Below the pieces are notes generated by a model. It worked only from the letters and a program-made list of their open reading frames with translations. It had not been told where the DNA came from and did not search any database. Position numbers and translations under genes: made by a program. Shown here one piece after another: positions 1,898-52,260 of a stretch of DNA of 53,580 nt. Origin of the DNA: Acidobacteriota bacterium (GTDB lineage Bacteria; Acidobacteriota; Blastocatellia; Pyrinomonadales; Pyrinomonadaceae); contig JBDTWZ010000001.1 of the NCBI GenBank assembly GCA_040006435.1, positions 1-53,580 of the forward strand. Direction: 5' to 3'. The stretch's first letter is position 1. Every line of letters begins with the position of its first letter.

Positions 1898-3847
1898 CTA
1901 GACACCAACCGTTTCGTCGTCTTCGATCAAATACGGCGAAACTGACGCCTTATCGATATCTTCTTCGAGAACCTTTGCGATCACAGGCAGAGACAGCGAA
2001 CGCGTTTTCTGGATTCCCGGAACTTCCTTTCCCTTCGCATAGACGGCGTGACGGCCGTTTTCCTGATACCACTCGGAAAGTGATGCCGTCTTGTGCATCT
2101 CTTCGATGATCTGCCGCCAGCCAACGCCGGTGTTGTATGCGCAAAAGCTGATCTCGCCTTCCTGCGTTCCGTACGGAATTACGCACATCTCGGTGCGGCG
2201 GAAGTCGTAGTTAAAAAGATCCTGGAACCACATTCCTTCGACACATAGAACGCGCCAAACGTCATCGTCGGATTTCTCGACCTTCATTCGATCGTTTCGG
2301 TCCGAGTTCGATGTCGTCGACGATGGTTTGAAAAGATTGATGATCTGCGAGATCGGGAATCCATCCGGAGCTTTCGCCGCGTCGTAATTGCGCATGATCG
2401 CCATCCCGAGTTGGGCCATCGTCAGCTTTTTGCCCCGGGCAGTATCGGTGATCGTCGCGACGTCCTTCATGAACTGCTCGTAGTTGAAAAATTCGAACAG
2501 CGATTTCGTCAGGCCGCTCTTTTTGTTGACGACCATCAGCGTGAATATCCCGCAATTCGGATGGCAATTGCACGACGACCAACCCCACGGAGCATCGGCA
2601 CCTTGCAGCATGTCCATGACGGATGTAAACGCGGAATAGCTGGACAGCGGAAACCAATCGCGCATCGGCTCGAGCACACCATCAAGCTGTTCTTTCAGAT
2701 CGTGCGTCATTCCCGCAAGTGTGTATCGCTGTTTGATGCGGTCCTCATCCGAAATGTCCTCATCGCGTCCGGTGAACGATACGGGCTGGAACGCGATCGT
2801 TTGAACCTTGTCGATGTTCTCCGCGGCAAATTTCACGATGCTGCCAATCCCGTTGTTGTTCCAGGAATTTACGATGGTCGTAACGAGCGTCACCTTAACA
2901 CCGACCGACGCGAGATTCTCGATCGCCTTGAGCTTGACGTCGAACAGATTGCCGACGCCACGATGCTCGTTGTCTTTCTCGTTGGTTCCGTCGAACTGAA
3001 GATAAACGCCGTGCTGGCCCGCTTCTTTCGCTGCCTTGCAAAACTCGATGTCCTCGGCATAACGGATGCCGTTAGTCGCGGCGAGAATCCGGTAGAATCC
3101 GACCTTCTTCGCGTAAGCAACGGCGTCGAGAAAGTATGGCGAGAGCGTCGGCTCGCCGCCTGAGAACAAAATGATGATCTGACGTTTTGGCTTGAACGAG
3201 ACGGCTCGATCGAGGATCGCTTTCGTATCTTCGAACGTCGGTTCGTGAACGTATCCAACCTGGTTCGCGTCCATAAAGCACGGATTGCACATCATGTTGC
3301 AGCGGTTGGTCAGATCTACGGTGAGCACCGCTCCGCGGCCGAACTTAATATCGCTCGTCCCGTGATGATGAACGTGTTTGTCCTCAGCCGCTTTGAAATC
3401 ACGTCCATAAAAAAGCGATTCGATACGGTTAAGAAAAGCGGAGTCGGTCGCCAGTACGTCAACGAACTCGCCGTGCGTTGTGCATGTCTTTCGCATCAGC
3501 ACCTGGCCGTTTTCTTCGACGATCTGGGCCTTGATCTCGCCCGGATGCGAATCCATCAAAATGTTCAGCGGAATGTCGCCGGAGATCACGCCGTTGCGGA
3601 CAGACTTTACGCATGAAGGACACAAGCTGTCGGTCTCGCGAGGAAATCCCAGCGGAGGCGCCGTACGTTCGTACGATTTCAAGAGCGGCTCGGCGGCCCA
3701 TGCGGGCTGTATCGACTCGCCTTCAGGAATCGCCTTATTGAGAGCCTGAAACGCCTTCCAGCCAAGATCGGCCATCTTTGAAACGGCCTTCGAACCTGTC
3801 TTGCCGTTCCCCTTTCCTTCACCTCGTCTGAAATTATCGCTAAACAT
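1898..3847 (-). CDS. large radical SAM enzyme with N-terminal Zn-ribbon-like segment and Cys-rich C-terminal half (possible tetraether-lipid-synthase-like protein)
   Basis: CNMMCNPC (CxxxCxxC) cluster motif, FSGGEPT SAM motif, N-terminal CPSC...CTTHGEF segment and C-terminal SSCNCHPNCG / CVIPYG...FCAYN cysteines. Start set at ATG 3847 (alternative 3775). The ORF-track extension to 4207 overlaps the divergent MOSC gene and is rejected. Confidence 0.85.
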   Translation of the reverse strand: MFSDNFRRGEGKGNGKTGSKAVSKMADLGWKAFQALNKAIPEGESIQPAWAAEPLLKSYERTAPPLGFPRETDSLCPSCVKSVRNGVISGDIPLNILMDSHPGEIKAQIVEENGQVLMRKTCTTHGEFVDVLATDSAFLNRIESLFYGRDFKAAEDKHVHHHGTSDIKFGRGAVLTVDLTNRCNMMCNPCFMDANQVGYVHEPTFEDTKAILDRAVSFKPKRQIIILFSGGEPTLSPYFLDAVAYAKKVGFYRILAATNGIRYAEDIEFCKAAKEAGQHGVYLQFDGTNEKDNEHRGVGNLFDVKLKAIENLASVGVKVTLVTTIVNSWNNNGIGSIVKFAAENIDKVQTIAFQPVSFTGRDEDISDEDRIKQRYTLAGMTHDLKEQLDGVLEPMRDWFPLSSYSAFTSVMDMLQGADAPWGWSSCNCHPNCGIFTLMVVNKKSGLTKSLFEFFNYEQFMKDVATITDTARGKKLTMAQLGMAIMRNYDAAKAPDGFPISQIINLFKPSSTTSNSDRNDRMKVEKSDDDVWRVLCVEGMWFQDLFNYDFRRTEMCVIPYGTQEGEISFCAYNTGVGWRQIIEEMHKTASLSEWYQENGRHAVYAKGKEVPGIQKTRSLSLPVIAKVLEEDIDKASVSPYLIEDDETVGV

Positions 3848-3955
3848 AATATTTGTCGGAGTGGGACGCACGAATCCCGGCGAACATCTTAACAAATATC
3901 TACCTGTCCTGCCCAATCTTGTGGCCCGTGGGCAAAATCGATATATTCGCCAATT

Positions 3956-4597
3956 ATGAGAGTTGTAACAGTTTCGGTGGGACAGCCGCAAATTGTTCAG
4001 ACTGGAAGCGAAGGATTTGTCCTCACGTCTATATTCAAGCATCGGGTTGACGGACGCGTGAGAGTGAATGAACTGAATCTTGCAGGCGATGCCCAGGCCG
4101 ACCTCACAGTACATGGCGGATGGAGCAAAGCTGTCTACGTTTACCCCGGTGAGCATTACGAATATTGGCGGAACGGGCTGCCGGAAATGGAACTGGGCGA
4201 TTCTCAATTCGGAGAGAACCTGACAACCGAAGGCTTGCTCGAAACCGAAGTATTTATCGGAGACAAAATTCGTATTGGAACAGCGGAGTTTGTCGTCACC
4301 GAACCCCGCATGCCGTGCTACAAACTCGGCATACGTTTTCGTCGAAAGGATATTCTTCGCCGGTTTCTACAGAGTCGAAAAAGCGGATTCTATCTTGCCG
4401 TAACAAAGACGGGGGAGCTTGCGGCCGGCGACGATATCGAAATTCTATCTCGAGATAAAAACGAGGTAACGGTCACGGATATCGTCAGGGTGTGGGTCCA
4501 GGACAAGGACGATCGAGAGACGATGGCGCGCGCTTTAAATATTGATGCGTTTCCCGAAAGCTGGAAGGAACCGTTCCGCGACCGACTCGCGGGTTAG
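3956..4597 (+). CDS. MOSC domain-containing protein (YiiM-like)
   Basis: 213 aa with typical MOSC beta-barrel motifs (GDAQADLTVHGG, TEPRMPCYKLG). The ATG start is divergent from the radical-SAM gene. Confidence 0.85.
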   Translation: MRVVTVSVGQPQIVQTGSEGFVLTSIFKHRVDGRVRVNELNLAGDAQADLTVHGGWSKAVYVYPGEHYEYWRNGLPEMELGDSQFGENLTTEGLLETEVFIGDKIRIGTAEFVVTEPRMPCYKLGIRFRRKDILRRFLQSRKSGFYLAVTKTGELAAGDDIEILSRDKNEVTVTDIVRVWVQDKDDRETMARALNIDAFPESWKEPFRDRLAG

Positions 4598-4614
4598 ACG
4601 TCGCCCCGCGGAAG

Positions 4615-5994
4615 CTACTCGGTGAGACGGGCAACGGCAAAAACACTACCGGTGATCGACATGTTCGGGTTCTGCGTGTAACCGACGACAAGCAGCTTCC
4701 CGTCCGGTTGGAGAGTAACGTCGCTGGCTCCCGCATTTTGGCCGGCGGTGAATGAAAATGACGTTTGCTCCTCGAACGCTCCAGTTGCAGAGAACCGGGC
4801 AACCAAAAAACTTGGAGTCGTCTCCGAGCCGATCTCGCCGGCTATTCGGATCTTACCGTCCGGTGAAATTGCGATCGAATTTGCAATATCCGTAGCGCCG
4901 GGAGCGAAGTCGTTTACCACAACGCCGTCGCTTCCAAACGTGGTGTCCCGTCTGCCGTTCGGTCTAAAGCGCGCCATCCATACATCCGTGTCTGAACTCA
5001 CAACGTTGCCGCAAAGAAGTATGTTGCCGTCAGCCTGCAGCAATGCCTTACGAACGGTACCAGTCAAGCCAGAGCCAAACGCAACACGCACAAAGCCAGA
5101 ACGACCGAACGTCTTGTCCCAATTTCCCGTCTCTGTCAGGCGGGCAAAGAAAAACTCACTCGAGCCGGTTGGCGAGTCGAACGGCGGGACGTGGCCAACA
5201 AGGAGAATCTTCCCGTCGTTCATTGCTATCATTTCGATAAAATTCGTCGGCGAAAATTTGTTAAAGCCAATTCTGAGAACGCCGTTTGCTCCGAAGGTCG
5301 TGTCGCGGGTGCCGTCTGAATTGAGGCGATAGAGAAAATACCCGCCTTCGTCCGTGACAAGCGCAAGAATTTTCCCGTCACTCCTGACGGCGATCTGGAC
5401 AGGTCGCGCGGTGAAAAAACCGAAGCAACATGGACCGATGCTTACGTTCGAAGCAAAGACATTGTCTACTCCTCCATTCGCCGTAAGGCGGACTGTTTGA
5501 ACAGTGCTTGATCCGACAGGAAGCCTTGAAACTTGCGCGATGCGCAAGGTTGATCCATCCGCGTACATCAGTGCATCCGTAAAATTCGTGCGGGCGTCCG
5601 ATCGCCAATCGGTGTGCGTTCCGCCGGAGCCAAAGCCTGAATCGAGGGCCCCGCTCGGCGTCAGTCCGGCCCAGGCAACTCCGGGCAACTGCCCGTCAGG
5701 GCTGATGTTTGAGAACGATCCGACGACAAGTATCCGATTGTTCGGCTGAAGGAAAACTCTAAATGCTTGTGATCTGTAGGTGGTAGACGAATCCGGAAAA
5801 GAGACCGTAACCTTTCCGCTGCCATTGAACGTCGGGTCGAGATTGAATGCGGCGTGTACCGGCAGGAGCCACACAAAGTTGAGGAGCGATATTGTTATGG
5901 ACTTCGTGATCGCACTCCGAAGTCGTGATCGGCGTGTTGTTATCGCGGTTTCCACCTCCACAAAAGAGCAGGTACGGTCCTGGGTGAGAAGCAA
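4615..5994 (-). CDS. secreted beta-propeller repeat protein (delta-60-type repeats)
   Basis: Hydrophobic signal-like segment SITISLLNFVWLLPVHA, followed by degenerate repeats with D-x-x-FG-x-x-G motifs (DPTFNGSG, DSGFGSGG, DTTFGANG, DKTFGRSG, DTTFGSDG). Confidence 0.65.
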   Translation of the reverse strand: MLLTQDRTCSFVEVETAITTRRSRLRSAITKSITISLLNFVWLLPVHAAFNLDPTFNGSGKVTVSFPDSSTTYRSQAFRVFLQPNNRILVVGSFSNISPDGQLPGVAWAGLTPSGALDSGFGSGGTHTDWRSDARTNFTDALMYADGSTLRIAQVSRLPVGSSTVQTVRLTANGGVDNVFASNVSIGPCCFGFFTARPVQIAVRSDGKILALVTDEGGYFLYRLNSDGTRDTTFGANGVLRIGFNKFSPTNFIEMIAMNDGKILLVGHVPPFDSPTGSSEFFFARLTETGNWDKTFGRSGFVRVAFGSGLTGTVRKALLQADGNILLCGNVVSSDTDVWMARFRPNGRRDTTFGSDGVVVNDFAPGATDIANSIAISPDGKIRIAGEIGSETTPSFLVARFSATGAFEEQTSFSFTAGQNAGASDVTLQPDGKLLVVGYTQNPNMSITGSVFAVARLTE

Positions 5995-6035: not shown

Positions 6036-7346
6036 TTACTCGAAGGCCTCCAAATATTTCACGCCAGAACCGGTGTTGAATAGCACGACAGTTTCACCAT
6101 CTTTAACCTCGGCTCGATCGATCAGTGTTAGTAAGGCGGGCAGGCACGCAGCACCCTCGGGAGCGGCAAAAACACCTTCGGTCGCACCGATCTCGCCGAC
6201 GGCTTTCACTAATTCTTCATCGCTCACAGCAATCGCGGTTCCACCCGATGCTCGGATAGCATCTAGGATCAAAAAATCGCCGATGGCTTTTGGAACTCGA
6301 AGGCCGGACGCGACGGTCGAAGCATTCTCGAATTCGTCAGCAAATCTGTCTCCTTTCTCGAACGCCCGCACTATCGGAGCGCAAGTTGCCGATTGGACCG
6401 TTACCATTCTTGGACGGCGCGAATCGATCCAGCCCATCTGCTCCATCTCGTCGAACGCTTTCCACATTCCGATCAAGCCGGTGCCGCCGCCGGTGGGATA
6501 AATGATCACGTCGGGTAAGTAGCGGGCTCTCTGATCGGGCACCACCCCGTCATCCGCTTCGCGGATGCCACCCCTCCTTAAACCAGGAGGGGAGCTATGT
6601 GCCAAACTCCCCTCCTGGTTTAAGGAGGGGTGGCCGAGGCTTTGCGAGGCCGGGGTGGTGCTGTAAGCGCCAAACTGTTCGAAGAGCTCATACCCCATCG
6701 TCTTCTTGCCTTCGACACGATACGGCTCTTTCAGCGTAGATACGTCAAACCAGCCTTCGGCCTCTTTTCTCTCGGCGACTATCTTTCCGCAATCCGTGAT
6801 CAAGCCGTCGACGAGAGTGACGTGCGCTCCCGTCTGCTCGCATTCGACGATGTTCGCTCGCGGAGTGTCGGATGGCATAAAGATAAATGCTTCCATTCCG
6901 GCTCGTGCGGCATACGCTGCCATCGCTCCCGCGGCGTTCCCCGCCGAAGGGACGGCGACCTTTTTCACGCCTAGCTCCTTTGCCATCGAGATCGCGGCCG
7001 TCATGCCGCGGGCTTTGAAGCTCTGCGTCGGGTTCTGGCCCTCGTCCTTGATGAACAGGTTTAGTTTGATCGGCAGTTTTTCCGCAAGTCGGCCGGCTTT
7101 TAGAAGCGGTGTCCAGCCTTCGCCAAAACTAATAATGTTGTCGGGGTTTTCAACCGGCAACACTTCGCGGTATCGCCACAATGACGATTCCCTCGACGCG
7201 AGTGCATCCGGCGTTATTGTCGCCGCAGCTTTTTCGAGGTCATATCGAACGAGCAGCGGCTTGCCGCATTCGACGCAGAGATTCTGCAGTTTATTCGCTT
7301 CGTGCCGCAGTCCGCAGAGCGCGCATTCGAGGTGTGTGACGTTCAT
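6036..7346 (-). CDS. thrC: threonine synthase carrying a 41-codon in-frame repeat insertion
   Basis: N-terminal Cys4 ribbon (CALCG...CVECG), PLP lysine motif TQSFKARG and glycine loop YPTGGGTGLIG. Start set at ATG 7346 (MNVTHLE), which removes the overlap with the upstream gene. Confidence 0.9.
   Translation of the reverse strand: MNVTHLECALCGLRHEANKLQNLCVECGKPLLVRYDLEKAAATITPDALASRESSLWRYREVLPVENPDNIISFGEGWTPLLKAGRLAEKLPIKLNLFIKDEGQNPTQSFKARGMTAAISMAKELGVKKVAVPSAGNAAGAMAAYAARAGMEAFIFMPSDTPRANIVECEQTGAHVTLVDGLITDCGKIVAERKEAEGWFDVSTLKEPYRVEGKKTMGYELFEQFGAYSTTPASQSLGHPSLNQEGSLAHSSPPGLRRGGIREADDGVVPDQRARYLPDVIIYPTGGGTGLIGMWKAFDEMEQMGWIDSRRPRMVTVQSATCAPIVRAFEKGDRFADEFENASTVASGLRVPKAIGDFLILDAIRASGGTAIAVSDEELVKAVGEIGATEGVFAAPEGAACLPALLTLIDRAEVKDGETVVLFNTGSGVKYLEAFE
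6539..6661. repeat. 123-bp nested palindromic element inside thrC
   Basis: Outer 11-bp inverted repeat GCACCACCCCG/CGGGGTGGTGC (6539-6549, 6651-6661). Inner perfect 27-bp inverted repeat (6568-6594, 6607-6633) with a 12-nt loop. Each inner arm contains its own 8-bp hairpin CCCCTCCT-TAAACC-AGGAGGGG. Confidence 0.9.
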
Positions 7347-7383
7347 AGACCGAATCAATATAGCTCGAGCAGCGAGCTCCGGG

Positions 7384-8064
7384 TCACTTCTTCCAAACAA
7401 ATTCTTTGAACAAATTGAAGGCGGCATTAAAGCCGAGTGAGAGGGTACCGCTTCGAACGCCATCTTTCCAATCGTATCGATCCGGGTACCACGTTTCGTA
7501 GGCGATGATGCTCGACGTGAATGTTCCGGCTAAGTTCGGGACGCCGATGACACGCTTACCATACCTATCACGCGCCGTGACGGGCGAGATGAGTACGTTC
7601 CGGATGCGGGCGGACACGCTTTTTTTCCGACTGCGATAGAAATGACTGTCCAATTTCATCGCTTCGTCGAGACCAAACTTCGTAGTTTGTTTGATCGCAT
7701 TCTTACCAAAGTTGGATGCGACGCGGCGCCCAAAACCTTCCCATTTCGTTCCCCACTCTGCCGGCGAATTACGCCAGGTAGAAATTCCCGCGGTCGCGAT
7801 CATTCTTCCAAGAGCGAACGGCCCAACGGTGCTGTTGATGAACCGCTTTTGGCGCGTAGCAGCGGTAGGTCGAACATAGTCAGTAGACGGCTTCACCGTG
7901 AATAGCCCGGGCTGAACCGTCGACCTTTGGAGTTCTTTATTCTGGTCTTTATCCGCAAGGTCGGTTGCGGTCGTTGGATCTGGTGTCGGCGTCGGTGTGG
8001 GGTCCTGCGCTAGTGTGACAGACGTCGCGAACAGAAGAGTCATTAGCAAAAAGTGCGGTTTCAT
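7384..8064 (-). CDS. hypothetical secreted protein
   Basis: Signal peptide MKPHFLLMTLLFATSVTLAQ followed by a PTPTPTPDP linker. No recognisable catalytic motif. Confidence 0.6.
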   Translation of the reverse strand: MKPHFLLMTLLFATSVTLAQDPTPTPTPDPTTATDLADKDQNKELQRSTVQPGLFTVKPSTDYVRPTAATRQKRFINSTVGPFALGRMIATAGISTWRNSPAEWGTKWEGFGRRVASNFGKNAIKQTTKFGLDEAMKLDSHFYRSRKKSVSARIRNVLISPVTARDRYGKRVIGVPNLAGTFTSSIIAYETWYPDRYDWKDGVRSGTLSLGFNAAFNLFKEFVWKK

Positions 8065-9609: not shown

Positions 9610-9690
9610 CGAGGTATGAGCGTCGTCGCGAGAATCGCCGCCGGTCAAACTCTTTTCACTTTTCACTTTTCACTCGTCACTCATCACTCG
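9599..9690 (+). repeat. heptamer-periodic GTGA/TCAC hairpin element (copy 2), spanning the ybbA stop and ending 7 nt before the ybbP ATG
   Basis: Perfect 13-bp inverted repeat GATGAGTGACGAG (9601-9613) / CTCGTCACTCATC (9673-9685). Core CCGGTCAAA. Tandem 7-mers ACTTTTC ACTTTTC ACTCGTC ACTCATC ACTCG (9658-9690). Confidence 0.8.
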
Positions 9691-15530: not shown

Positions 15531-17408
15531 CTATTCCGCTCGAAGGATTAGTTTGTAGATCGTGTACATGCCCACGACCTCGCCGCCATCCCGTACGTAC
15601 CATTTATCGAGATTGCTGAGATCGGTGTCCGCATCGTTCCTTACCACGGCGTAGGACAGCATGGGGTTTGCGGCGTTGACGGCGTTGAATGCGGACCTAT
15701 AGGCGGCGTAGCGCTCGACCTCAGAGTCGATCTCACCATAGGTCAGCGGCGTTGCTTCGCTGCTCAGACGATCGGTGTGTCTTCCCCAACCAAAGAGCGC
15801 GATCTTCGTGACGAAGTCATTTTTCAAAAGATAATCCAGAACCTCTTCATCGACATTTGAGTAATAAAGATATTGAAAGTAACGGTCCTTATTTTCCTGC
15901 CAGGACATCCCGGCAAATACATGCTGATGACGCGACCACAGAACGTTCTGCGGCGCGATGCTCGGCAAATCGTCCGACTGGATCATGTCGTACGCCAGCA
16001 CGGTGGAGCGATACGGATCGACATCCTCTAGTGACAACTCTTCGAGTCGTTTCGCGACTGGCAGCGCAATATCGCGCTCGACGTTCGCACCGTCCAGGAC
16101 GCGCACCGTGTAATGGCACTCGACAAATCCCCAGAGGATCGCGACGATGGCAAGCGATGCGCAGGCTAGTTTCGCCCGGGCACTTTCTATACTCAACCAT
16201 TGGCGAAGCAAAACTCCGATGGTCACGATCAGAGCGAGTGCCGCAACATAATTCCCGATGAACACCTGATAATGGATCGGCTGCAGCGAACGTCCAGTGA
16301 CGATCTGCTGATTGAAGATAATAAAAGGAACAAGAGCCAGCGAGAGTGCGAATAGAGTCGACCTGTCGCCCGGAGCGATCATCCTTTTCGTGACGCCGAC
16401 AGCAAGCAACAGCAGACATATCAAGCTTACATATTCGGGCATCCGCCACAGGTCCGGCACCCGCGTGTAAACCAAGAGTTGGACGTCGTCCATCGTCTCG
16501 GACCGTTTCGAAAGCAGCCAGGCGTACGGAATGACGGCGAGTGCACAGCCGACCCCGACGGCGATAAGGTTCTTTATATCCCGCCCAAAACTTTCCGGCC
16601 GAAATACAAGCCAGACAACGAAAAGACATCCGAGCCAGGCGGCCGCAGTCGTCCAGATGTAGAAATAAGAGAAGACGGTGTAGGCGAAGAGAAAGATCGC
16701 GGCGGTGAGAAATAAATAGCGCTGGAGAGCGGAACCGGTAGCGACCGGTTTTCCCGGTGATGGATCGATCGCCTTGACGGGCGACCCGGTCGCTACCGCT
16801 CCCGGTTCTGACTTCCGTTCTTCAACAAGGCGCCAGACCACCGCAAACAAACCGAACACTGCGGCCATTGCCATCGCCGGAATATATCGGCGAAATCCGG
16901 GAAAGTACGGATAAGAGAATCCATCGAAGAATATCTCGGGCATCGCACCTTCGCCCGCGGCCAGGGCTCCGCCTGCGAATACGACAAGCGAACCGGCCAT
17001 TCCGAACCAACTGCTCCCGGTGATCCGCGCGATCAGCCAAAACGCAGCAAGCGCCGCCAGAAAGCCCGCGGCGGCTCCGGACAAGGTCATCGCCCACGGC
17101 GTTCCGACACCAAGGATCCGCGCAGGGATCGCGATCGAGTATGGCGCGGCGAATTGGATGGAAAAAAGTGATTCGGGCTGCGGCGTCAAAGGCGATTCGT
17201 CGCGACCCGAATAAGGATCATTCTTCCGCGGACGGCCGTCGATCAACGCACGAACGTAAGAGGCATAAGCAACTTCGTCGATGTCGTTGTATGCGTAGTG
17301 CCCGTTCCACTCCGACCCGCGCAGATAGAACATGTTCAACTGCGGGTAGAGGCAAAAAATTGCAAGGAATACAGCGGCGACAATGCCGAAGCGCCAGCGA
17401 AGCTTCAT
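15531..17408 (-). CDS. large polytopic membrane protein of unknown function carrying an in-frame palindromic repeat
   Basis: 625 aa with at least 10 hydrophobic segments and a soluble C-terminal domain. No catalytic motif recognised. Confidence 0.75.
   Translation of the reverse strand: MKLRWRFGIVAAVFLAIFCLYPQLNMFYLRGSEWNGHYAYNDIDEVAYASYVRALIDGRPRKNDPYSGRDESPLTPQPESLFSIQFAAPYSIAIPARILGVGTPWAMTLSGAAAGFLAALAAFWLIARITGSSWFGMAGSLVVFAGGALAAGEGAMPEIFFDGFSYPYFPGFRRYIPAMAMAAVFGLFAVVWRLVEERKSEPGAVATGSPVKAIDPSPGKPVATGSALQRYLFLTAAIFLFAYTVFSYFYIWTTAAAWLGCLFVVWLVFRPESFGRDIKNLIAVGVGCALAVIPYAWLLSKRSETMDDVQLLVYTRVPDLWRMPEYVSLICLLLLAVGVTKRMIAPGDRSTLFALSLALVPFIIFNQQIVTGRSLQPIHYQVFIGNYVAALALIVTIGVLLRQWLSIESARAKLACASLAIVAILWGFVECHYTVRVLDGANVERDIALPVAKRLEELSLEDVDPYRSTVLAYDMIQSDDLPSIAPQNVLWSRHQHVFAGMSWQENKDRYFQYLYYSNVDEEVLDYLLKNDFVTKIALFGWGRHTDRLSSEATPLTYGEIDSEVERYAAYRSAFNAVNAANPMLSYAVVRNDADTDLSNLDKWYVRDGGEVVGMYTIYKLILRAE
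16729..16812. repeat. palindromic GTAGCGACC-type element inside the membrane-protein gene
   Basis: Perfect 12-bp inverted repeat GGTAGCGACCGG (16737-16748) / CCGGTCGCTACC (16786-16797) around an ATCGAT centre. The right half (16778-16812) is 33/35 identical to 20597-20631. Confidence 0.85.
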
Positions 17409-19649: not shown

Positions 19650-21545
19650 GTGAAACCGACAAACATTAACGATCCCGAATATTTTCATAAGGTGGTGGAT
19701 TGCCAGTACGCATGTCCGGCCCACACACCGGTGCCGGAGTACATTCGCCTCATCGCCGAGGGAAAGTACACCGAGGCGTACATGATCAACTGGGACTCGA
19801 ATGTATTTCCCGGAATCCTCGGGCGTACATGCGATCGCCCGTGCGAACCGGCATGCCGGCGCGGCCGCATTGACGAAGAGCCGGTTGCGATCTGTCGTCT
19901 GAAGCGCGTTGCCGCGGATAATAAAGACGATGTCAAACATTTGATGCCGCAGGCGCCGTTCAAGCCGAACGGAAAAAAGGTGGCGCTGATCGGCGCCGGT
20001 CCTGCTTCCCTGACGGTCGCACGCGATCTGGCACCGCTCGGCTACGAGATCCATCTGTTCGACGAACAGTACAAGGGCGGCGGGTTTATGCTCAGCCAGA
20101 TCCCCGCGTTTCGTCTGCCCGAAACGGTGCTCGACGAAGAGGTAAACTACATTCTCGACCTCGGCATTCACACACACTTCAAACATTACGTCTCGTCGCT
20201 GAAAGAAGTCCTAGAGCAGGATTACGACGCCGTGTTTGTCGGCACGGGCGCACCGCGCGGACGCGAACTGAAGATCCCCGGCCGTGAAGAAGGCGCGGCG
20301 AACATTCACATCGGCATTAACTGGCTCGGCAGCGTCGCATTCGAACACACGAGCAAGATCGGCAAGAACGTCATCGTGCTCGGCGGCGGCAACACCGCGA
20401 TGGACTGCTGCCGCACCGCGCGCCGTGTCGGCGGCGAAGACGTCAAGGTCATCGTCCGCTCGCCGTTCGCCGAGATGAAGGCATCGCCGTGGGAAAAAGA
20501 AGACGCACAGCACGAGGACATCCCGATCATCGACAACCACGTACCGAAGTCATTCGTGATCGAATACGACGAAGATAACGACGCCGGGACGGATCTGTCA
20601 GAACCGCGAGCGGTAGCGACCGGGTCACCCGGTGGGAGTTCGACGCCTAAGGGCCGTCTCAAGGGCGTCATGTTCGAAAAGGTAGAAGCGAAGTACGACG
20701 CCGCCGGCAAACGTTCGCTCGTCCCGACCGGCGAGCCCGACGTGTTCTTCCCCGCCGACGATGTTCTCGTCGCAATTGGTCAGGAAAACTCGTTCCCCTG
20801 GATCGAGCGCAACATCGGTCTCGATTTCGACAAGTGGGAGATGCCGATCGTCGACAAGACGACATTTCAATCGACGCATCCGAAAGTTTTCTTCGGCGGC
20901 GACGCGGCGTTCGGTCCCGAGAATGTCATCACCGCCGTCGCTCACGGACACCAGGCGGCCGTCTCGATAGATCTGCTTTGCAACAAAAAGAATCTGCTGA
21001 CCGAGCGACTTCACCCGATGGTCAATCTCGTCTCGCAAAAGATGGGTATCCACGAATGGGCATACGACAGCGAGATCGACGAATACGACCGACTCGTCGT
21101 CCCGCAGGCGCCGAAAACAAAGACGCTCGTCAATCGAAAACAGGAAGTCGAGATGGGATTCGACCGGCTCGCCGGATTCAAGGAAGCGGAACGGTGCTTG
21201 AACTGCGATGTTCAGACCGTCTTCGACGCACCGAAATGCATCGAGTGCGACGCCTGCGTCGACATCTGCCCGACAGCCTGCATCACCTTCACCGCGAACG
21301 GCGACGAAGAAGATCTTCGCTCGCGAACAAAAGTTCCCGCCCTCACTCTCACACAGGACCTCTACGTCTCTGAGCCGCTTATCCAAACCAAACGGATCAT
21401 GGTCAAGGACGAAGACGTGTGCCTCCATTGCGGCCTCTGCGCCGAACGCTGCCCGACCGCCGCCTGGGACATGCAAAAATTCTGGTACGACGTGACGAAG
21501 GCCGGCGAGGTCAAGTACGGGTGTAATGGAAATGGTGGGGGGTAA
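19650..21545 (+). CDS. GltD-like FAD/NAD(P)-dependent oxidoreductase fused to a 2x[4Fe-4S] ferredoxin domain, with an in-frame repeat insertion
   Basis: N-terminal Fe-S segment CQYACPAHTP...CDRPCEPAC, dinucleotide folds VALIGAGPASL and VIVLGGGNTAMD, C-terminal CLNCD...CIECDACVDICP and CLHCGLCAERCP. GTG start after GGAGA. Confidence 0.85.
   Translation: MKPTNINDPEYFHKVVDCQYACPAHTPVPEYIRLIAEGKYTEAYMINWDSNVFPGILGRTCDRPCEPACRRGRIDEEPVAICRLKRVAADNKDDVKHLMPQAPFKPNGKKVALIGAGPASLTVARDLAPLGYEIHLFDEQYKGGGFMLSQIPAFRLPETVLDEEVNYILDLGIHTHFKHYVSSLKEVLEQDYDAVFVGTGAPRGRELKIPGREEGAANIHIGINWLGSVAFEHTSKIGKNVIVLGGGNTAMDCCRTARRVGGEDVKVIVRSPFAEMKASPWEKEDAQHEDIPIIDNHVPKSFVIEYDEDNDAGTDLSEPRAVATGSPGGSSTPKGRLKGVMFEKVEAKYDAAGKRSLVPTGEPDVFFPADDVLVAIGQENSFPWIERNIGLDFDKWEMPIVDKTTFQSTHPKVFFGGDAAFGPENVITAVAHGHQAAVSIDLLCNKKNLLTERLHPMVNLVSQKMGIHEWAYDSEIDEYDRLVVPQAPKTKTLVNRKQEVEMGFDRLAGFKEAERCLNCDVQTVFDAPKCIECDACVDICPTACITFTANGDEEDLRSRTKVPALTLTQDLYVSEPLIQTKRIMVKDEDVCLHCGLCAERCPTAAWDMQKFWYDVTKAGEVKYGCNGNGGG
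20597..20660 (+). repeat. GTAGCGACC-type repeat inside the GltD-like gene
   Basis: GTCAGAACCGCGAGCGGTAGCGACCGGGTCACCCG (20597-20631) matches the reverse complement of 16778-16812 at 33/35. It is followed by GACGCCTAAGGGCCGTC, which resembles the REP hairpin core. Confidence 0.8.
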
Positions 21546-22168: not shown

Positions 22169-22183
22169 TCTTAGCGATTGTCG

Positions 22184-22501
22184 CGGAGCGACCACATGCA
22201 TTTAGCCGTGGCCTTAAGGCCACGGCTTCCGACGACCCGTTCCTGCCGCATCAGCGGTAGTTGGTTCAATTGCCGCTAACGCGGCAAGAATTACTTGCAT
22301 CCTCCAACCGTGGCCTGAAGGCCACGGCTAAAGGCGTCTGCCCGCTACGCGGTCAGCTCGCCGGATCGAGGGTCGAGGCGACGCGGTCGGGTCGAGGCAA
22401 GGTGGGCGAGGCAAGGTCGTCGCGTAGCGACCGCATGCATTTAGCCGTGGCCTTAAGGCCACGGTTTTCCGACGACCCCGTTCCTGCCGCGTCAGCGGTA
22501 G
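22184..22501. repeat. cluster of three REP units (alternating orientation, BIME-like)
   Basis: Units of about 80 nt. Each has a GTAG-containing head (CGCGTAGCGACC), hairpin core GCCGTGGCC-loop-GGCCACGGC (cores at 22205-22226, 22308-27, 22444-64) and a second small hairpin CTGCCGC-NTCA-GCGGTAG. The middle unit is inverted. Confidence 0.9.
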
Positions 22502-22507
22502 GTGAAA

Positions 22508-22960
22508 TCAATCGAAAACATATTGCAGGTCGTACTCGATGCCATGCAGCCTGAGCAGCGAGATATATTCCTCTTCGAAGGTCTCGCCATTGTGATGCTC
22601 CCGCTGGTTCTCGATGTATCGAATTACGTCCGGAACTTGTGATTTACTTACGGAGAATATCCCGTAGCCGTCCTGCCAGCCGAAATAGCTCAGGTTCGAG
22701 AATTCGTCGTGAATCCACTTGGAAGAGCCACCTTTTAGCCACATTGGGATCTTGCACGGCGGAACGACCGGCTTCGCCATAACAAGTCCGTGAACGTGAT
22801 TCTCGATGCCTCCAACTCTTAAAGAGGTTACGTCGTGTTTCCGTGCGATTCCGCCGATATAGTTCCAAACACGTTCTTCGATCTCTTGGTAAATAAAGTT
22901 ACGCCGCTCTTTCGTACTAAAGACGATGTGGTAGAAGAGTTGGGAATACGTGTTTGCCAT
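22508..22960 (-). CDS. REP-associated tyrosine transposase (RAYT; IS200/IS605 TnpA Y1 family)
   Basis: 150 aa with HUH motif HVHGLV, catalytic-Tyr region WQDGYG, and N-terminal YHIVFSTKERR typical of Y1 transposases. REPs flank it on both sides in inverted orientation. Confidence 0.9.
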   Translation of the reverse strand: MANTYSQLFYHIVFSTKERRNFIYQEIEERVWNYIGGIARKHDVTSLRVGGIENHVHGLVMAKPVVPPCKIPMWLKGGSSKWIHDEFSNLSYFGWQDGYGIFSVSKSQVPDVIRYIENQREHHNGETFEEEYISLLRLHGIEYDLQYVFD

Positions 22961-22978
22961 CGTCGTAGATTCCGTTCA

Positions 22979-23050
22979 TCTACCGCTGAGGCGGCAATGT
23001 GACCGTGGCCTAAAGGGCCACGGCTAAATGCGTGCGGCCGCTACGCGGCT
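22979..23050. repeat. REP unit (inverted relative to 22419-22501)
   Basis: CTACCGCTGAGGCGGCA...CCGTGGCCTAAAGGGCCACGGCTAAATGCGTGCGGCCGCTACGCGG. This is the reverse complement of the REP consensus, including the GTAG head. Confidence 0.9.
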
Positions 23051-23273
23051 GCTACCACATTTCGAGTTTGGTCCGCGGCCATCTTAGAAAGGCATCGACA
23101 AACTCGTCTTTAATTTTTCTGAATTGTTCCGAAATGCATCAGCATCCGCACGCCGAGCGACATCGCCGGTCATCCATTCAGGTCACGAAAGCTCGCACGG
23201 ACAGATGCATGTAGGGGGTAATCGGCTCCCGCGCTTGGTTCCAAGGGCACTTTCGGTTAATCCTACGTAGAGC

Positions 23274-31426: not shown

Positions 31427-31528
31427 GTGTCTATTATAGACGATGCACGATCGAACTCTTTTTATTCCCTGAGACTTCTCTTATAATAGCCCGTCGAACG
31501 TATCGATCATCCCTGTTATGACTTGTTT

Positions 31529-33499
31529 ATGAAGATCAACGACTTTGTAGTCCGCTTTGCGAATGTGAACGGTACCGGTTCGGCATCGGCCAACGCACTG
31601 TTTACAAAGGCAGTGTTTCGCATGGGCGTGCCGGTGACGCCGAAGAATATCTTTCCGTCGAATATCCAGGGGCTGCCGACGTGGTACGAGGTGCGTATTT
31701 CGGAAGGCGGACATCTCGGCCGCCGCGAGGGCGTCGATCTGATGATCGCGGTCAATCCGCAGTCGATGAAAAAGGATTACGCCGATGTTCGCGAGGGCGG
31801 CTATTTTCTTTACGACTCCTCGAAGCCCCTCGCACCCGGTTACGATCGGACCGACATCACCCATATCGGCATCCCGCTGATGACTCTCTGCAATGCAGAG
31901 TTTACCGACGCACGCCAGCGCCAGCTTTTCAAGAACATCGTCTATATCGGAGCCCTTGTCGCTCTGTTCGGGATCGAGTTTGAAATGCTCGAGCAGCTCG
32001 TCGGCGAACAGTTCCGCGGTAAGGAAAAATTGATCGAGCCTAACATCCGGGCGCTCAACATCGGGGTGAAATACACGCGGGAGAATTTCGAATGTCCGTT
32101 AGACATACGCGTCGAACGCCGCGACCTGCTCGGCGATAAAGTTCTTTACAGCGGCAATTCGGCGTGCGCACTCGGTGCGATCTATGCCGGAGCAACCGTC
32201 GCCGCGTGGTATCCGATCACACCTTCAACATCGGTCGTCGATGCGTTTGCCAAGTATGCCGCTAAGTACCGCGTCGACGCCGAGACGGGTATGAACAACT
32301 ACGCGATCGTGCAGGCCGAGGACGAACTCGCGGCGATCGGAATGGTAATGGGCGCGTGCTGGAACGGCGCACGTGCGTTCACCGCGACGAGCGGCCCGGG
32401 CATCTCTCTGATGAACGAGTTCCTCGGCCTCGGCTATTTTGCCGAGGTGCCGACGGTGCTAATAGACGTACAACGAACCGGCCCATCCACCGGCATGCCG
32501 ACGCGGACACAGCAATCCGACATTTTGCTCGCGGCGTATGCGTCGCACGGCGATACAAAACATCCGCTGTTGTTCCCAGCCTCGCCGAAGGAATGTTTCG
32601 AGATGACGGCCGACGCCTTCGATCTGACCGAGCGTCTTCAGACGCCGGTCATCGTCATGACGGATCTCGATCTCGGGATGAACGATCACATCACCGAGCC
32701 TCTTGTTTGGGATGACGCCCGTAAATTTGACCGCGGCAAGGTCCTTACAGCCAGACATCTTGAACGCCTCGGCGGTGCGGCACTGGCTGATATCGTCGAG
32801 GGGATGGAGAACGAAACCGACGGCGACGCGTTCGCGGGCAGCGCCATTGAACAGTTTCGCGGTAAATTTGGCCGCTATCTTGACATCGACGACGACGGTA
32901 TTCCGTACCGCACAGTTCCCGGCGTTCATCCGACGCGCGGGGCATATGTCACACGCGGCTCATCGCGTGACGAGTACGCAGTCTACACCGAGGACGGCGA
33001 CGTCTATCGTCGCAACATGGACCGCCTCGCCCGCAAGTGGGACACGGCGAAGGAGCTGGTGCCGCAGCCGGAATTTTATGGCGACGCGGGGACGGGGCGA
33101 CACGGAGAAGGGGAGAAAGGGAGAAAGGGAGAGGGGCCGACCTCTGACTCGTCACTCGTCACTCGTCCCTCATCACTAAAAAATGACGCCGTCATTTTTT
33201 TCGGAACCTCCACATACGCAGCGATCGAGGCATTGGAGCTATTAGCCGATGAGGGAATCCGACTCGACGCGATGCGAGCCCGTGGATTCCCTTTTGGAAA
33301 GTCGTTTCGTGATTTCATCGACTCACACGACCGCGTCTTCGTCATCGAACAAAACCGCGATGCGCAGTTTCGCAGCCTGATGATGATCGAATTAGGAGTC
33401 GACGCATCAAAGCTTGTTTCGGTCCTAAACTACGACGGGATGCCGATCACGGCGGACAACATCTTCATACAGATTAATTCATTTTCTCAGGACCAATGA
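31529..33499 (+). CDS. korA: 2-oxoacid:ferredoxin oxidoreductase, fused gamma-alpha subunit, with an in-frame repeat insertion
   Basis: N-terminal gamma-like VNGTGSASANALF...PSNIQGLPTWYEVR, and alpha domain with TGPSTGMPTRTQQSD. ATG 31529 preferred over TTG 31523. No beta-subunit gene follows. Confidence 0.85.
   Translation: MKINDFVVRFANVNGTGSASANALFTKAVFRMGVPVTPKNIFPSNIQGLPTWYEVRISEGGHLGRREGVDLMIAVNPQSMKKDYADVREGGYFLYDSSKPLAPGYDRTDITHIGIPLMTLCNAEFTDARQRQLFKNIVYIGALVALFGIEFEMLEQLVGEQFRGKEKLIEPNIRALNIGVKYTRENFECPLDIRVERRDLLGDKVLYSGNSACALGAIYAGATVAAWYPITPSTSVVDAFAKYAAKYRVDAETGMNNYAIVQAEDELAAIGMVMGACWNGARAFTATSGPGISLMNEFLGLGYFAEVPTVLIDVQRTGPSTGMPTRTQQSDILLAAYASHGDTKHPLLFPASPKECFEMTADAFDLTERLQTPVIVMTDLDLGMNDHITEPLVWDDARKFDRGKVLTARHLERLGGAALADIVEGMENETDGDAFAGSAIEQFRGKFGRYLDIDDDGIPYRTVPGVHPTRGAYVTRGSSRDEYAVYTEDGDVYRRNMDRLARKWDTAKELVPQPEFYGDAGTGRHGEGEKGRKGEGPTSDSSLVTRPSSLKNDAVIFFGTSTYAAIEALELLADEGIRLDAMRARGFPFGKSFRDFIDSHDRVFVIEQNRDAQFRSLMMIELGVDASKLVSVLNYDGMPITADNIFIQINSFSQDQ
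33104..33200 (+). repeat. composite periodic repeat inside korA (purine octamers, ACTCGTC heptamers, 11-bp palindrome)
   Basis: GGAGAAGG GGAGAAAG GGAGAAAG GGAGAGGG (33104-33135). ACTCGTC x3 plus CCTCATC ACT (33147-33177), shared with 9672-9688. AAAAAATGACG-C-CGTCATTTTTT (33178-33200). Confidence 0.8.
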
Positions 33500-51012: not shown

Positions 51013-51207
51013 TTTAAATTGCCCCAACCTTTAGGTCGGGGTCACATGAGCGCTAAGCTCCGGCTTTAGCCGAAATATAAACAAAGCTTCCTTTTTGGCT
51101 ATAGGCGAATTCAGCTAAAGCTAAAGGGATTTTTTTTTCGATCGCATTCGGCTAAAGCCGGGTTCCGGACTCTTCTTACCCCGACCTAAAGGTCGGGGCA
51201 ATTTAAA
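51013..51207. mobile_element. 195-bp MITE-like palindromic element
   Basis: 30-bp terminal inverted repeats TTTAAATTGCCCCAACCTTTAGGTCGGGGT / ACCCCGACCTAAAGGTCGGGGCAATTTAAA (1 mismatch). Internal inverted repeat CCGGCTTTAGCCGAA (51060-74) / TTCGGCTAAAGCCGG (51147-61). No ORF. Confidence 0.8.
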
Positions 51208-51937: not shown

Positions 51938-52003
51938 GAATGAAGTTTAGCAGACGCGTACCCGCAAATCGGCGAGATGCCGACAAGGCACGCCGCGTCG
52001 GGC

Positions 52004-52175
52004 CGCGTAGCGGCCGCTCGCATTTAGCCGTGGCCTTCAGGCCACGGATGAAGGTCAACAAATCTTGCCGCGTCAGCGGCAATTGAGAATTCGTGCGGTC
52101 GCTACGCGACGCAATTGATTTTTCCGACTACCCGTGGCCTAAGGGCCACGGCTAAACTCGATTGACCGCGACGGG
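52004..52175. repeat. REP doublet of the same family as at 22.2-23.0 kb
   Basis: CCGCGTAGCGGCCGCTCGCATTTAGCCGTGGCCTTCAGGCCACGG...CTTGCCGCGTCAGCGGCAA, then an inverted, partly rearranged unit with core CCGTGGCCTAAGGGCCACGGCTAAA (52132-52155). Confidence 0.85.
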
Positions 52176-52260
52176 GGCAAAGAATTTGTAGGCCGTCGGC
52201 GTGAGCTCAGTCAAGATTGAAGCAGTGCGTGCATTTCACGAGATGGGTTAAAATATCTCC

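Follow-up and report, generated by a model that had tools for sequence, protein, structure and literature searches.

A REPIN-like palindromic repeat family of Blastocatellia with in-frame copies in genes and a probable class 3-like Y1 transposase

In Pseudomonas and E. coli, inverted doublets of repetitive extragenic palindromes (REPs), the REPINs, are reportedly associated with REP-associated tyrosine transposases (RAYTs) of the class 2 TnpA_REP type. Class 3 of the TnpA_Y1 transposases is characterized (Quentin et al., 2018, BMC Genomics 19:475, PMC6006769) by the motifs NHVH, W[TA] and Y----Q, the last in the form YV[VI][AENY]EQ, by a length of ~178 aa and by acidobacterial hosts; its genes are flanked by several structures whose 5′ foot is CnGA, copy number is high (~600 copies in Solibacter usitatus) and the group is called uncharacterised. 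Di Nocera and colleagues (2013, BMC Genomics 14:522, PMC3733652) describe intragenic GTAG/CGTC REPs in several species, cite the Rickettsia palindromic elements (RPE) as in-frame inserts, and introduce TIRYT/TIRtron, Acidobacteria-specific RAYT-like genes with inverted flanking repeats that can form repeat families. The window analysed here is a stretch of 53,580 nucleotides (53.6 kb) from an Acidobacteriota bacterium of the Pyrinomonadaceae (assembly GCA_040006435.1, contig JBDTWZ010000001.1, positions 1 to 53,580). It carries a palindromic element inside a membrane-protein gene and a related single arm inside an oxidoreductase gene, both members of a repeat family that we call family A. The reading that we favour, with a probability of roughly 0.78, is that the element is a partly decayed REPIN-like doublet of a Blastocatellia/Pyrinomonadales family, mobilised by a class 3-like Y1 enzyme and surviving in frame within genes.

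A dispersed palindromic repeat and its hairpin design

The palindrome that a sequence-only reading of this DNA had described is confirmed: window positions 16727-16812 form an inverted doublet of the sequence given there, including a perfect 12-bp inverted repeat (GGTAGCGACCGG at 16737-16748, its exact reverse complement at 16786-16797) with its symmetry centre at ATCGAT (16764-16769). Longer, imperfect arms of 27 nt each (16730-16756 and 16778-16804) are 81% complementary. The right arm (35 nt, 16778-16812, minus strand) is identical at 33 of 35 positions to 20597-20631 on the plus strand, again as claimed; a match of this type appears in none of 100 dinucleotide shuffles, and the recurrence of the arm is not a chance match. 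Folded as single-stranded DNA, a 97-nt region around the doublet reaches -27.3 kcal/mol (z = -3.8), better than all 200 shuffles. The family is represented in the window by two intact arms and one decayed arm, as follows.

15531..17408, minus: host gene 1, for a polytopic membrane protein of 625 aa; its open reading frame (ORF) stays open through the element
16783..16812, minus: intact family A arm; foot GTCAGAA (16812-16806), 20-nt hairpin CCGGGAGC-GGTA-GCGACCGG (16805-16786), tail GTC
16749..16782, minus: inter-arm spacer of ~34 nt, peptide PVKAIDPSPGK
16727..16748, plus: decayed partner arm, GAGCGGAACC-GGTAGCGACCGG
19650..21545, plus: host gene 2, for a GltD-like FAD/NAD(P) oxidoreductase of 631 aa that has Fe-S domains
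20597..20626, plus: solo arm, GTCAGAA-CCGCGAGC-GGTA-GCGACCGG-GTC, with one stem mismatch

Host gene 1, for which no Pfam or NCBIfam family was matched, translates across the element as ...RKSEPGAVATGSPVKAIDPSPGKPVATGSALQRY... (a reading also given as ...SEPGAVATGSPVKAIDPSPGKPVATGSAL...), the intact arm contributing SEPGAVATGS in sense and the decayed arm PVATGSAL on the gene strand. The insert (aa 200-228) does lie, as had been proposed, in a loop flanked by hydrophobic segments (174-196 and 231-251). Measured against the family consensus and against its orthologue in L200, the long-read assembly of the closest relative, the left arm is short by two codons (6 nt) in its 5′ half-stem and its foot is mutated or lost; the spacer has diverged from that of L200, with indels. 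In host gene 2 the translation across the solo arm is ...DLSEPRAVATGSPGGS..., with SEPRAVATGS in sense, and the insert takes the place of the ancestral turn E-DG-KL. The fold of this solo arm is no better than that of shuffles (z = -0.5). An AlphaFold2 model of the oxidoreductase, built with 32 close orthologues, is too poor for use (mean predicted local distance difference test score 42, predicted TM-score 0.43); it weakly suggests strands on either side of a low-confidence insert at residues 309-335.

Scanned with the 19-nt core GAGCGGTAGCGACCGGGTC, a set of bacterial genomes with one per species (596 Gb) gives matches at at least 119 loci, with 68 species-level assemblies among the matches listed; by our own arithmetic ~4 matches of a 19-mer are expected by chance in that amount of DNA. 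The carriers among the matches listed are nearly all labelled Blastocatellia, Pyrinomonadaceae, Pyrinomonadales, Chloracidobacterium or unclassified Acidobacteriota, and several assemblies have at least 5-8 loci each. The motif is abundant well beyond the two window genes, and the sequence-only reading was right to treat it as an interspersed palindromic repeat, in frame in both of them, and not as a conserved protein motif. Three element-bearing contigs (L090, L093 and L094) are binned as Heliomicrobium, Clostridia and Terriglobia; since the family is otherwise strictly distributed, these contigs may be mis-binned.

When arms with up to four mismatches to a 24-nt core are counted in 825 kb of related loci, 240 are found. 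Convergent pairs account for 152 of them (76 pairs, modal spacer 32-35 nt); the remaining 88 lie outside such pairs, part of them in tandem arrays. Two inverted arms ~34 nt apart make up a ~100-nt REPIN-like element. A typical full unit measures ~85-108 nt, its inverted repeat mostly terminates at GTCAG, and its central region is partly conserved in one subfamily of full elements. One full element has a folding energy of -49 kcal/mol (z = -13). No target-site duplication was seen in 53 full elements, and an Rfam search of the window and eight loci with full elements returned no family, only sub-threshold chance hairpin matches to microRNA models. Head-to-tail arrays of family A with periods of 48, 45 and 35 nt occur in three loci of the assembly Fractures_MAG_02 (L043 6779-6980, L097 6-166 and L101 9-245). 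The L043 array is open in frame, with PASEPGAVATGSLATS repeated, and lies between two sets of FAD-linked oxidase domains within one open frame of 890 codons.

A single arm of 30 nt holds a 20-nt hairpin with the layout CAG[A/T]A foot, CCGG-GA-GC, loop GGTA, GC-GA-CCGG; the eight-position stem consists of a 4-bp outer stem, a tandem G.A/A.G mismatch and a 2-bp inner stem, closed by a GNNA tetraloop. Folding one arm as DNA gives precisely this structure at minimum energy (4 bp, 2x2 loop, 2 bp, tetraloop). The generalized motif CAG[AT]A-N8-GNNA-N8 occurs 343 times in the related loci versus 15 times in reversed-sequence controls, and its occurrences fall into 22 recurrent stem families in which the internal positions GA/GA, GC/AA or CT/GG are kept while all six stem pairs vary on both sides (covariation). 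Sister stems include GCCC-GA-CC/GG-GA-GGGC, GCCC-GC-GC/GC-AA-GGGC, CCGC-GC-GC/GC-AA-GCGG, CGGG-GA-GC/GC-GA-CCTG and CCGC-CT-GC/GC-GG-GCGG, and the loops seen across families are GGTA, GTAA, GTGA, GTCA and GTTA, all of the form GNNA. The tandem G.A and GNNA features exist on the top strand only. The label of a GTAG-type REP, which the sequence-only reading had given the element, is not supported: GTAG is the loop GGTA running into the first 3′ stem base and is not a 5′ foot of the classical REP type, since sister loops read GTAA, GTGA and GTCA and the conserved foot is CAG[A/T]A. One sister family, GTCAGTA-CCGCCTGC-GGTA-GCGGGCGG-GTC with the peptide LSVPPAVAGGS (P0124, P0126, P0127, P0137; L056 ~7860-7885), differs from family A by compensatory stem changes and is its neighbour in some loci and proteins.

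Y1 transposase genes between inverted hairpins

Family A arms themselves enclose a Y1 gene in locus L095. The gene (SNHVHTVV ... YVEYDQ), frameshifted in that assembly, has two arms upstream and two inverted arms downstream, every foot being distal to the gene. An intact homologue in L024 encodes 176 aa with the motifs TNHVHSVV, PWA and YVINGQ and is flanked by GTCAGAA-GCCCGACC-GTAA-GGGAGGGC hairpins; the protein passes the Pfam Y1_Tnp model (26.8 bits, cut-off 23) and reaches 24.5 bits against the NCBIfam RAYT model NF047646 (REP_Tyr_transpos), below the cut-off of 80. A metagenome scan with the L024 protein yields 80 loci, 57 of which have hairpins of family A design within 200 nt of the gene, often two per side. 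Such hairpins are present on both sides in 42 of the 80, where the upstream one mostly shares the strand of the gene and the downstream one is inverted. NHVH is found in 79 of these homologues, Y[VIL]xxxQ (mostly YVxxxQ) in 73 and PW[AT] in 44. Judged by sequence, the signatures of the Y1 clade with such flanks agree with 'class 3 TnpA_Y1'. In general terms, these hairpin-flanked class 3-like genes support the link to a tyrosine (HUH-Y1) transposase that the sequence-only reading had drawn.

The enzyme it had singled out, a supposed RAYT 2-6 kb from both family A copies, has other surroundings, listed here with the gene.

22508-22960: Y1_Tnp gene (Pfam Y1_Tnp, 92 bits)
22180-22504, 22962-23060 and 52002-52180: composite three-hairpin repeat, in inverted orientation around the gene at 22508-22960; the copy at 52002-52180 is without a transposase gene

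Its Y motif, YIENQREHH, has the Y---Q--HH signature that PMC6006769 gives for TnpA_Y1 subclass 1.2, and NCBIfam calls the protein IS200-like, not REP_Tyr_transpos. The hairpins of the composite unit are GTCGC-GTA-GCGAC, CCGTGGCC-TTAA-GGCCACGG and CTGCCGC-GTCA-GCGGTAG; the unit, whose first member is also given as GTCGCGTAGCGAC and which recurs 29 kb away at 52002-52180, is of a design unrelated to family A, the only shared feature being the 10-mer GTAGCGACCG within GTCGC-GTA-GCGAC (22419-22431). Homologues of the window gene were also considered as the cognate enzyme: tblastn finds five in the related loci, each with hairpins of its own and none adjoining family A. As the gene at 22508-22960 belongs to another subclass with other flanking hairpins, and family A flanks another Y1 clade, the enzyme proposed by the sequence-only reading is probably the wrong one.

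Arms inside genes and the sites they occupy

Long open frames contain 52 of 227 arms (23%) versus 71% of random positions, so genes are disfavoured as locations yet far from excluded. Pfam domains flank the insert on both sides in hosts that include ThiC, arginyl-tRNA synthetase (ArgRS), Mfd, FAD-linked oxidases, molybdopterin (MoCo) enzymes, M14 and M36 peptidases and a UvrD-like protein, and inserts tend toward positions between Pfam domains. Four of the six frames of an arm are stop-free, two per strand; among 36 exact-core arms in long frames the peptide is SEPGAVATGS in 23, VRTGSGSDRV in seven, DPVATAPGSD in four and TRSLPLPVL in two. Intragenic arms are mostly solo or tandem (37 of 52) whereas those outside genes are mostly paired (119 of 175; Fisher p = 8e-7), and the unpaired intragenic arms lie in sense and antisense orientation in a ratio of 33:4. 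By eye, a family A arm is apparently also present in the activation-loop region of a Ser/Thr protein kinase (..LGLAKLSEPRAVATGS...TPGMVMGTVS; L053 ~4950-5060, L106 ~700-800).

Alignments of 120 orthologues each of the membrane protein and the oxidoreductase support the suggestion that the loop is lineage-specific: distant orthologues of both window proteins are without the insert, and no loop shared with other phyla appears. Distant membrane-protein orthologues (~600 aa) have a short loop, and close ones carry family A (SEPGAVATGS ... DPVATAPGSD) or other palindromic or heptamer repeats, some of them nested, such as NAECGMRNAEF ... SAFRIPHSA and ADLGLRIADL ... IRNPQS. The former (P0003, P0005, P0012, P0034 and others) resembles translated (GCGGAAT)n plus its inverse, judging from the peptides alone, and the loop of P0034 contains a ~60-residue run of (GCGGAAT)n-like repeats. 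In the oxidoreductase the ancestral turn FVIE-DG-KLKGV is kept in ~45 of the 120 orthologues and the remainder have inserts of ~15-75 aa exactly there, from at least eight repeat families that include family A and its LSVPPAVAGGS sister. In each of the two window proteins, every internal insertion of at least 8 aa lies in a single region. Empty and filled oxidoreductase sites were compared at the DNA level, and in the empty-site DNA, GAG GAC GGC AAG CTG, nothing resembling a hairpin or a foot was seen that could account for the hot spot. In L200 the oxidoreductase orthologue (3206-5146) is called as three genes of 185, 232 and 111 aa, a split that could reflect indel errors or a real disruption near the repeat inserts.

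The doublet in the membrane-protein gene is common to the window and the L200 species, whose gene is 81% identical at the DNA level and whose arms are both near-intact; from this comparison the doublet appears to be older than the split between the two. The oxidoreductase arm is common to the window and the close relative L091, a pair that is uninformative about constraint at the DNA level because the flanks are ~90% identical. A similar orthologous solo arm in L201-L203 has substitutions consistent with ordinary decay.

Other repeats were also seen in the window. A perfect 28-nt inverted repeat (GCCACCCCTCCTTAAACCAGGAGGGGAG and its complement) at 6567-6634 is in frame in gene 6036-7463 (minus), which encodes a pyridoxal phosphate-dependent enzyme; it interrupts the PALP domain match and is read as ...GHPSLNQEGSLAHSSPPGLRRGG.... 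A heptamer-type repeat of ACTCGTC/ACTTTTC units at 33133-33178 is read as ...GEGEKGRKGEGPTSDSSLVTRPSSL... within gene 31523-33499 (plus), which is 2-oxoacid:ferredoxin oxidoreductase alpha-like, and a related heptamer copy (9644-9689) separates an ABC ATPase gene from a permease gene. A further hairpin repeat is the 38-nt inverted repeat TTTAAATTGCCCCAACCTTTAGGTCGGGGTCACATGAG (51013-51050 and 51170-51207), which is 89% complementary, with its arms 119 nt apart.

Origin of the element and relation to known systems

By analogy with the IS200/IS605 and RAYT systems, a class 3-like Y1 enzyme would most likely bind the arm hairpin on single-stranded DNA, cleave at the foot, and then copy or move arms and doublets without target duplication. 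Intragenic copies would persist only where the frame is kept, the site is a permissive surface loop and the peptide is stop-free, small and flexible (mostly SEPGAVATGS); the survivors would decay slowly as protein segments, and both window copies may be such survivors. No host function needs to be assumed. Several points weigh against this account. Membership of class 3 is taken from published motif signatures and length, not from the profile of the authors who defined the class; the residue before Q in the Y motif is G, not E, and half of the feet read CAGT versus CnGA. L095 is the only locus with family A itself around a Y1 gene, which is frameshifted there, and tblastn finds no class 3-like Y1 gene in the 53.6-kb window, so that a cognate enzyme in the source organism is putative. 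The sequences compared for covariation were selected for pairing, which makes 'percent paired' circular and leaves the diversity of pair types alone as informative. The case for translation of the inserts comes only from the intactness of the reading frames. A filter for tolerated peptides does not by itself predict the 33:4 sense bias. Finally, the first arm is identical at 37 of 37 positions between the window and L200 although the genes are 81% identical, which hints at constraint or homogenisation not predicted by simple neutral decay; this extra conservation is hinted at by the window-L200 pair only.

The same identity, together with the sense bias (in spite of two stop-free frames per strand), the restriction of the tandem G.A and GNNA features to the top strand and the preference for positions between Pfam domains, would fit an intragenic hairpin kept for a role in the host at the DNA or RNA level, the peptide being a by-product; the hairpin might make ribosomes or RNA polymerase pause between domains, mark a place where the mRNA is processed or stabilised, or bind a protein. 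We consider this unlikely: intragenic arms shed stem bases and gain substitutions, the oxidoreductase arm folds no better than shuffles, arms are depleted in open frames, and many orthologues function without the insert or with unrelated repeats in its place. A canonical GTAG-tagged REP moved by the window gene 22508-22960 is less likely still. That gene encodes a genuine Y1_Tnp protein, is close to both copies and has the shared 10-mer in its flanking hairpin, but its flanks belong to the different composite unit repeated at 52002-52180, YIENQREHH fits subclass 1.2 and neither RAYT class 2 nor class 3, the NCBIfam call is IS200-like, its five homologues go with other hairpins away from family A, and GTAG is unconserved among the structural sister families.

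The size of the full unit, its long terminal inverted repeats and the partly conserved centre of one subfamily recall a miniature inverted-repeat transposable element derived from, and mobilised by, a DDE-type insertion sequence that shares those termini. The lack of target-site duplications in 53 full elements, the covarying hairpin in each arm, the frequency of solo arms and tandem arrays, and the HUH-Y1 identity of the sole gene found between such arms make this a very improbable origin. Descent or convergence of a flexible-linker protein module, with the DNA palindrome incidental, could explain the decapeptide SEPGAVATGS in many unrelated proteins, but it is contradicted by the non-coding copies, long open frames being absent around 77% of arms; four different frames are used, distant orthologues are without the peptide and the same DNA flanks a transposase gene. 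We give it next to no credence. The preferred account, a doublet spread by a class 3-like Y1 enzyme, could be part of something broader. Coding DNA of the Pyrinomonadaceae might be a regular target of single-strand hairpin transposition, with one 'landing-pad' loop per protein that repeatedly receives many unrelated families in frame, in sense and often nested. We regard this only as a tentative extension, more doubtful than probable; if true, insertion would be aimed at existing hairpins or at the transcription-exposed non-template strand, and a lineage-wide process would be building hypervariable surface loops in housekeeping proteins.

To our knowledge there has never been an experimental study of a class 3 HUH-Y1 protein; family A and its sisters supply a candidate substrate, backed by covariation, with a CAG[A/T]A foot, 4 bp, tandem G.A, 2 bp and a GNNA loop. 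REP-type elements, usually defined as extragenic, here supply parts of the sequence of essential proteins throughout an entire class of soil Acidobacteria. Annotation is affected because the recurrent peptides SEPGAVATGS, LSVPPAVAGGS and NAECGMRNAEF are translated repeats, and the same matters for orthologue alignment and for the origin of protein loops. The sense bias and the pattern of one hot spot per protein offer a handle on where and when single-strand transposases meet their targets.

Like the REPIN/RAYT systems, which reportedly combine inverted REP doublets, a single-copy Y1 gene with inverted REPs, clusters and solo units and a lack of target duplication, family A has all of these features; it is unlike them in foot and hairpin design, in the protein (24.5 versus 80 bits against the RAYT model) and in not being confined to extragenic space. 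The likeness to the class 3 TnpA_Y1 of PMC6006769 covers NHVH, W[TA] and Y----Q, a length of ~176-178 aa, an acidobacterial host, several inverted flanking hairpins, the foot CAGA and hairpins that are also dispersed without a gene. The differences from that paper are the CAGT form of half of the feet and the Y motif YVxNGQ; family A, its Blastocatellia hosts, the covarying stem with tandem G.A and GNNA, and the frequent in-frame copies are, to our reading, not described in it. With the intragenic REPs and RPE of PMC3733652, family A has in common short palindromes, single or dimeric, in frame in known genes, adding ~10-30 residues, with DNA-repair genes (here Mfd and the UvrD-like protein) among the hosts. 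It departs from the GTAG/CGTC REPs in having no tag at the stem end and another transposase class; the arm GTCAGAACCGGGAGCGGTAGCGACCGGGTC is without a CGTC tag and, unlike RPE, its hosts are Acidobacteriota. The ~23% intragenic share, the sense bias and the single multi-family hot spot are unreported in PMC3733652. By description, the class 3-like clade seen here may plausibly be the TIRYT/TIRtron group of the same paper. No paper on the Blastocatellia repeat family A or on its hot spots was found in the literature. The kind of element is already known; what is new here is the Blastocatellia family.

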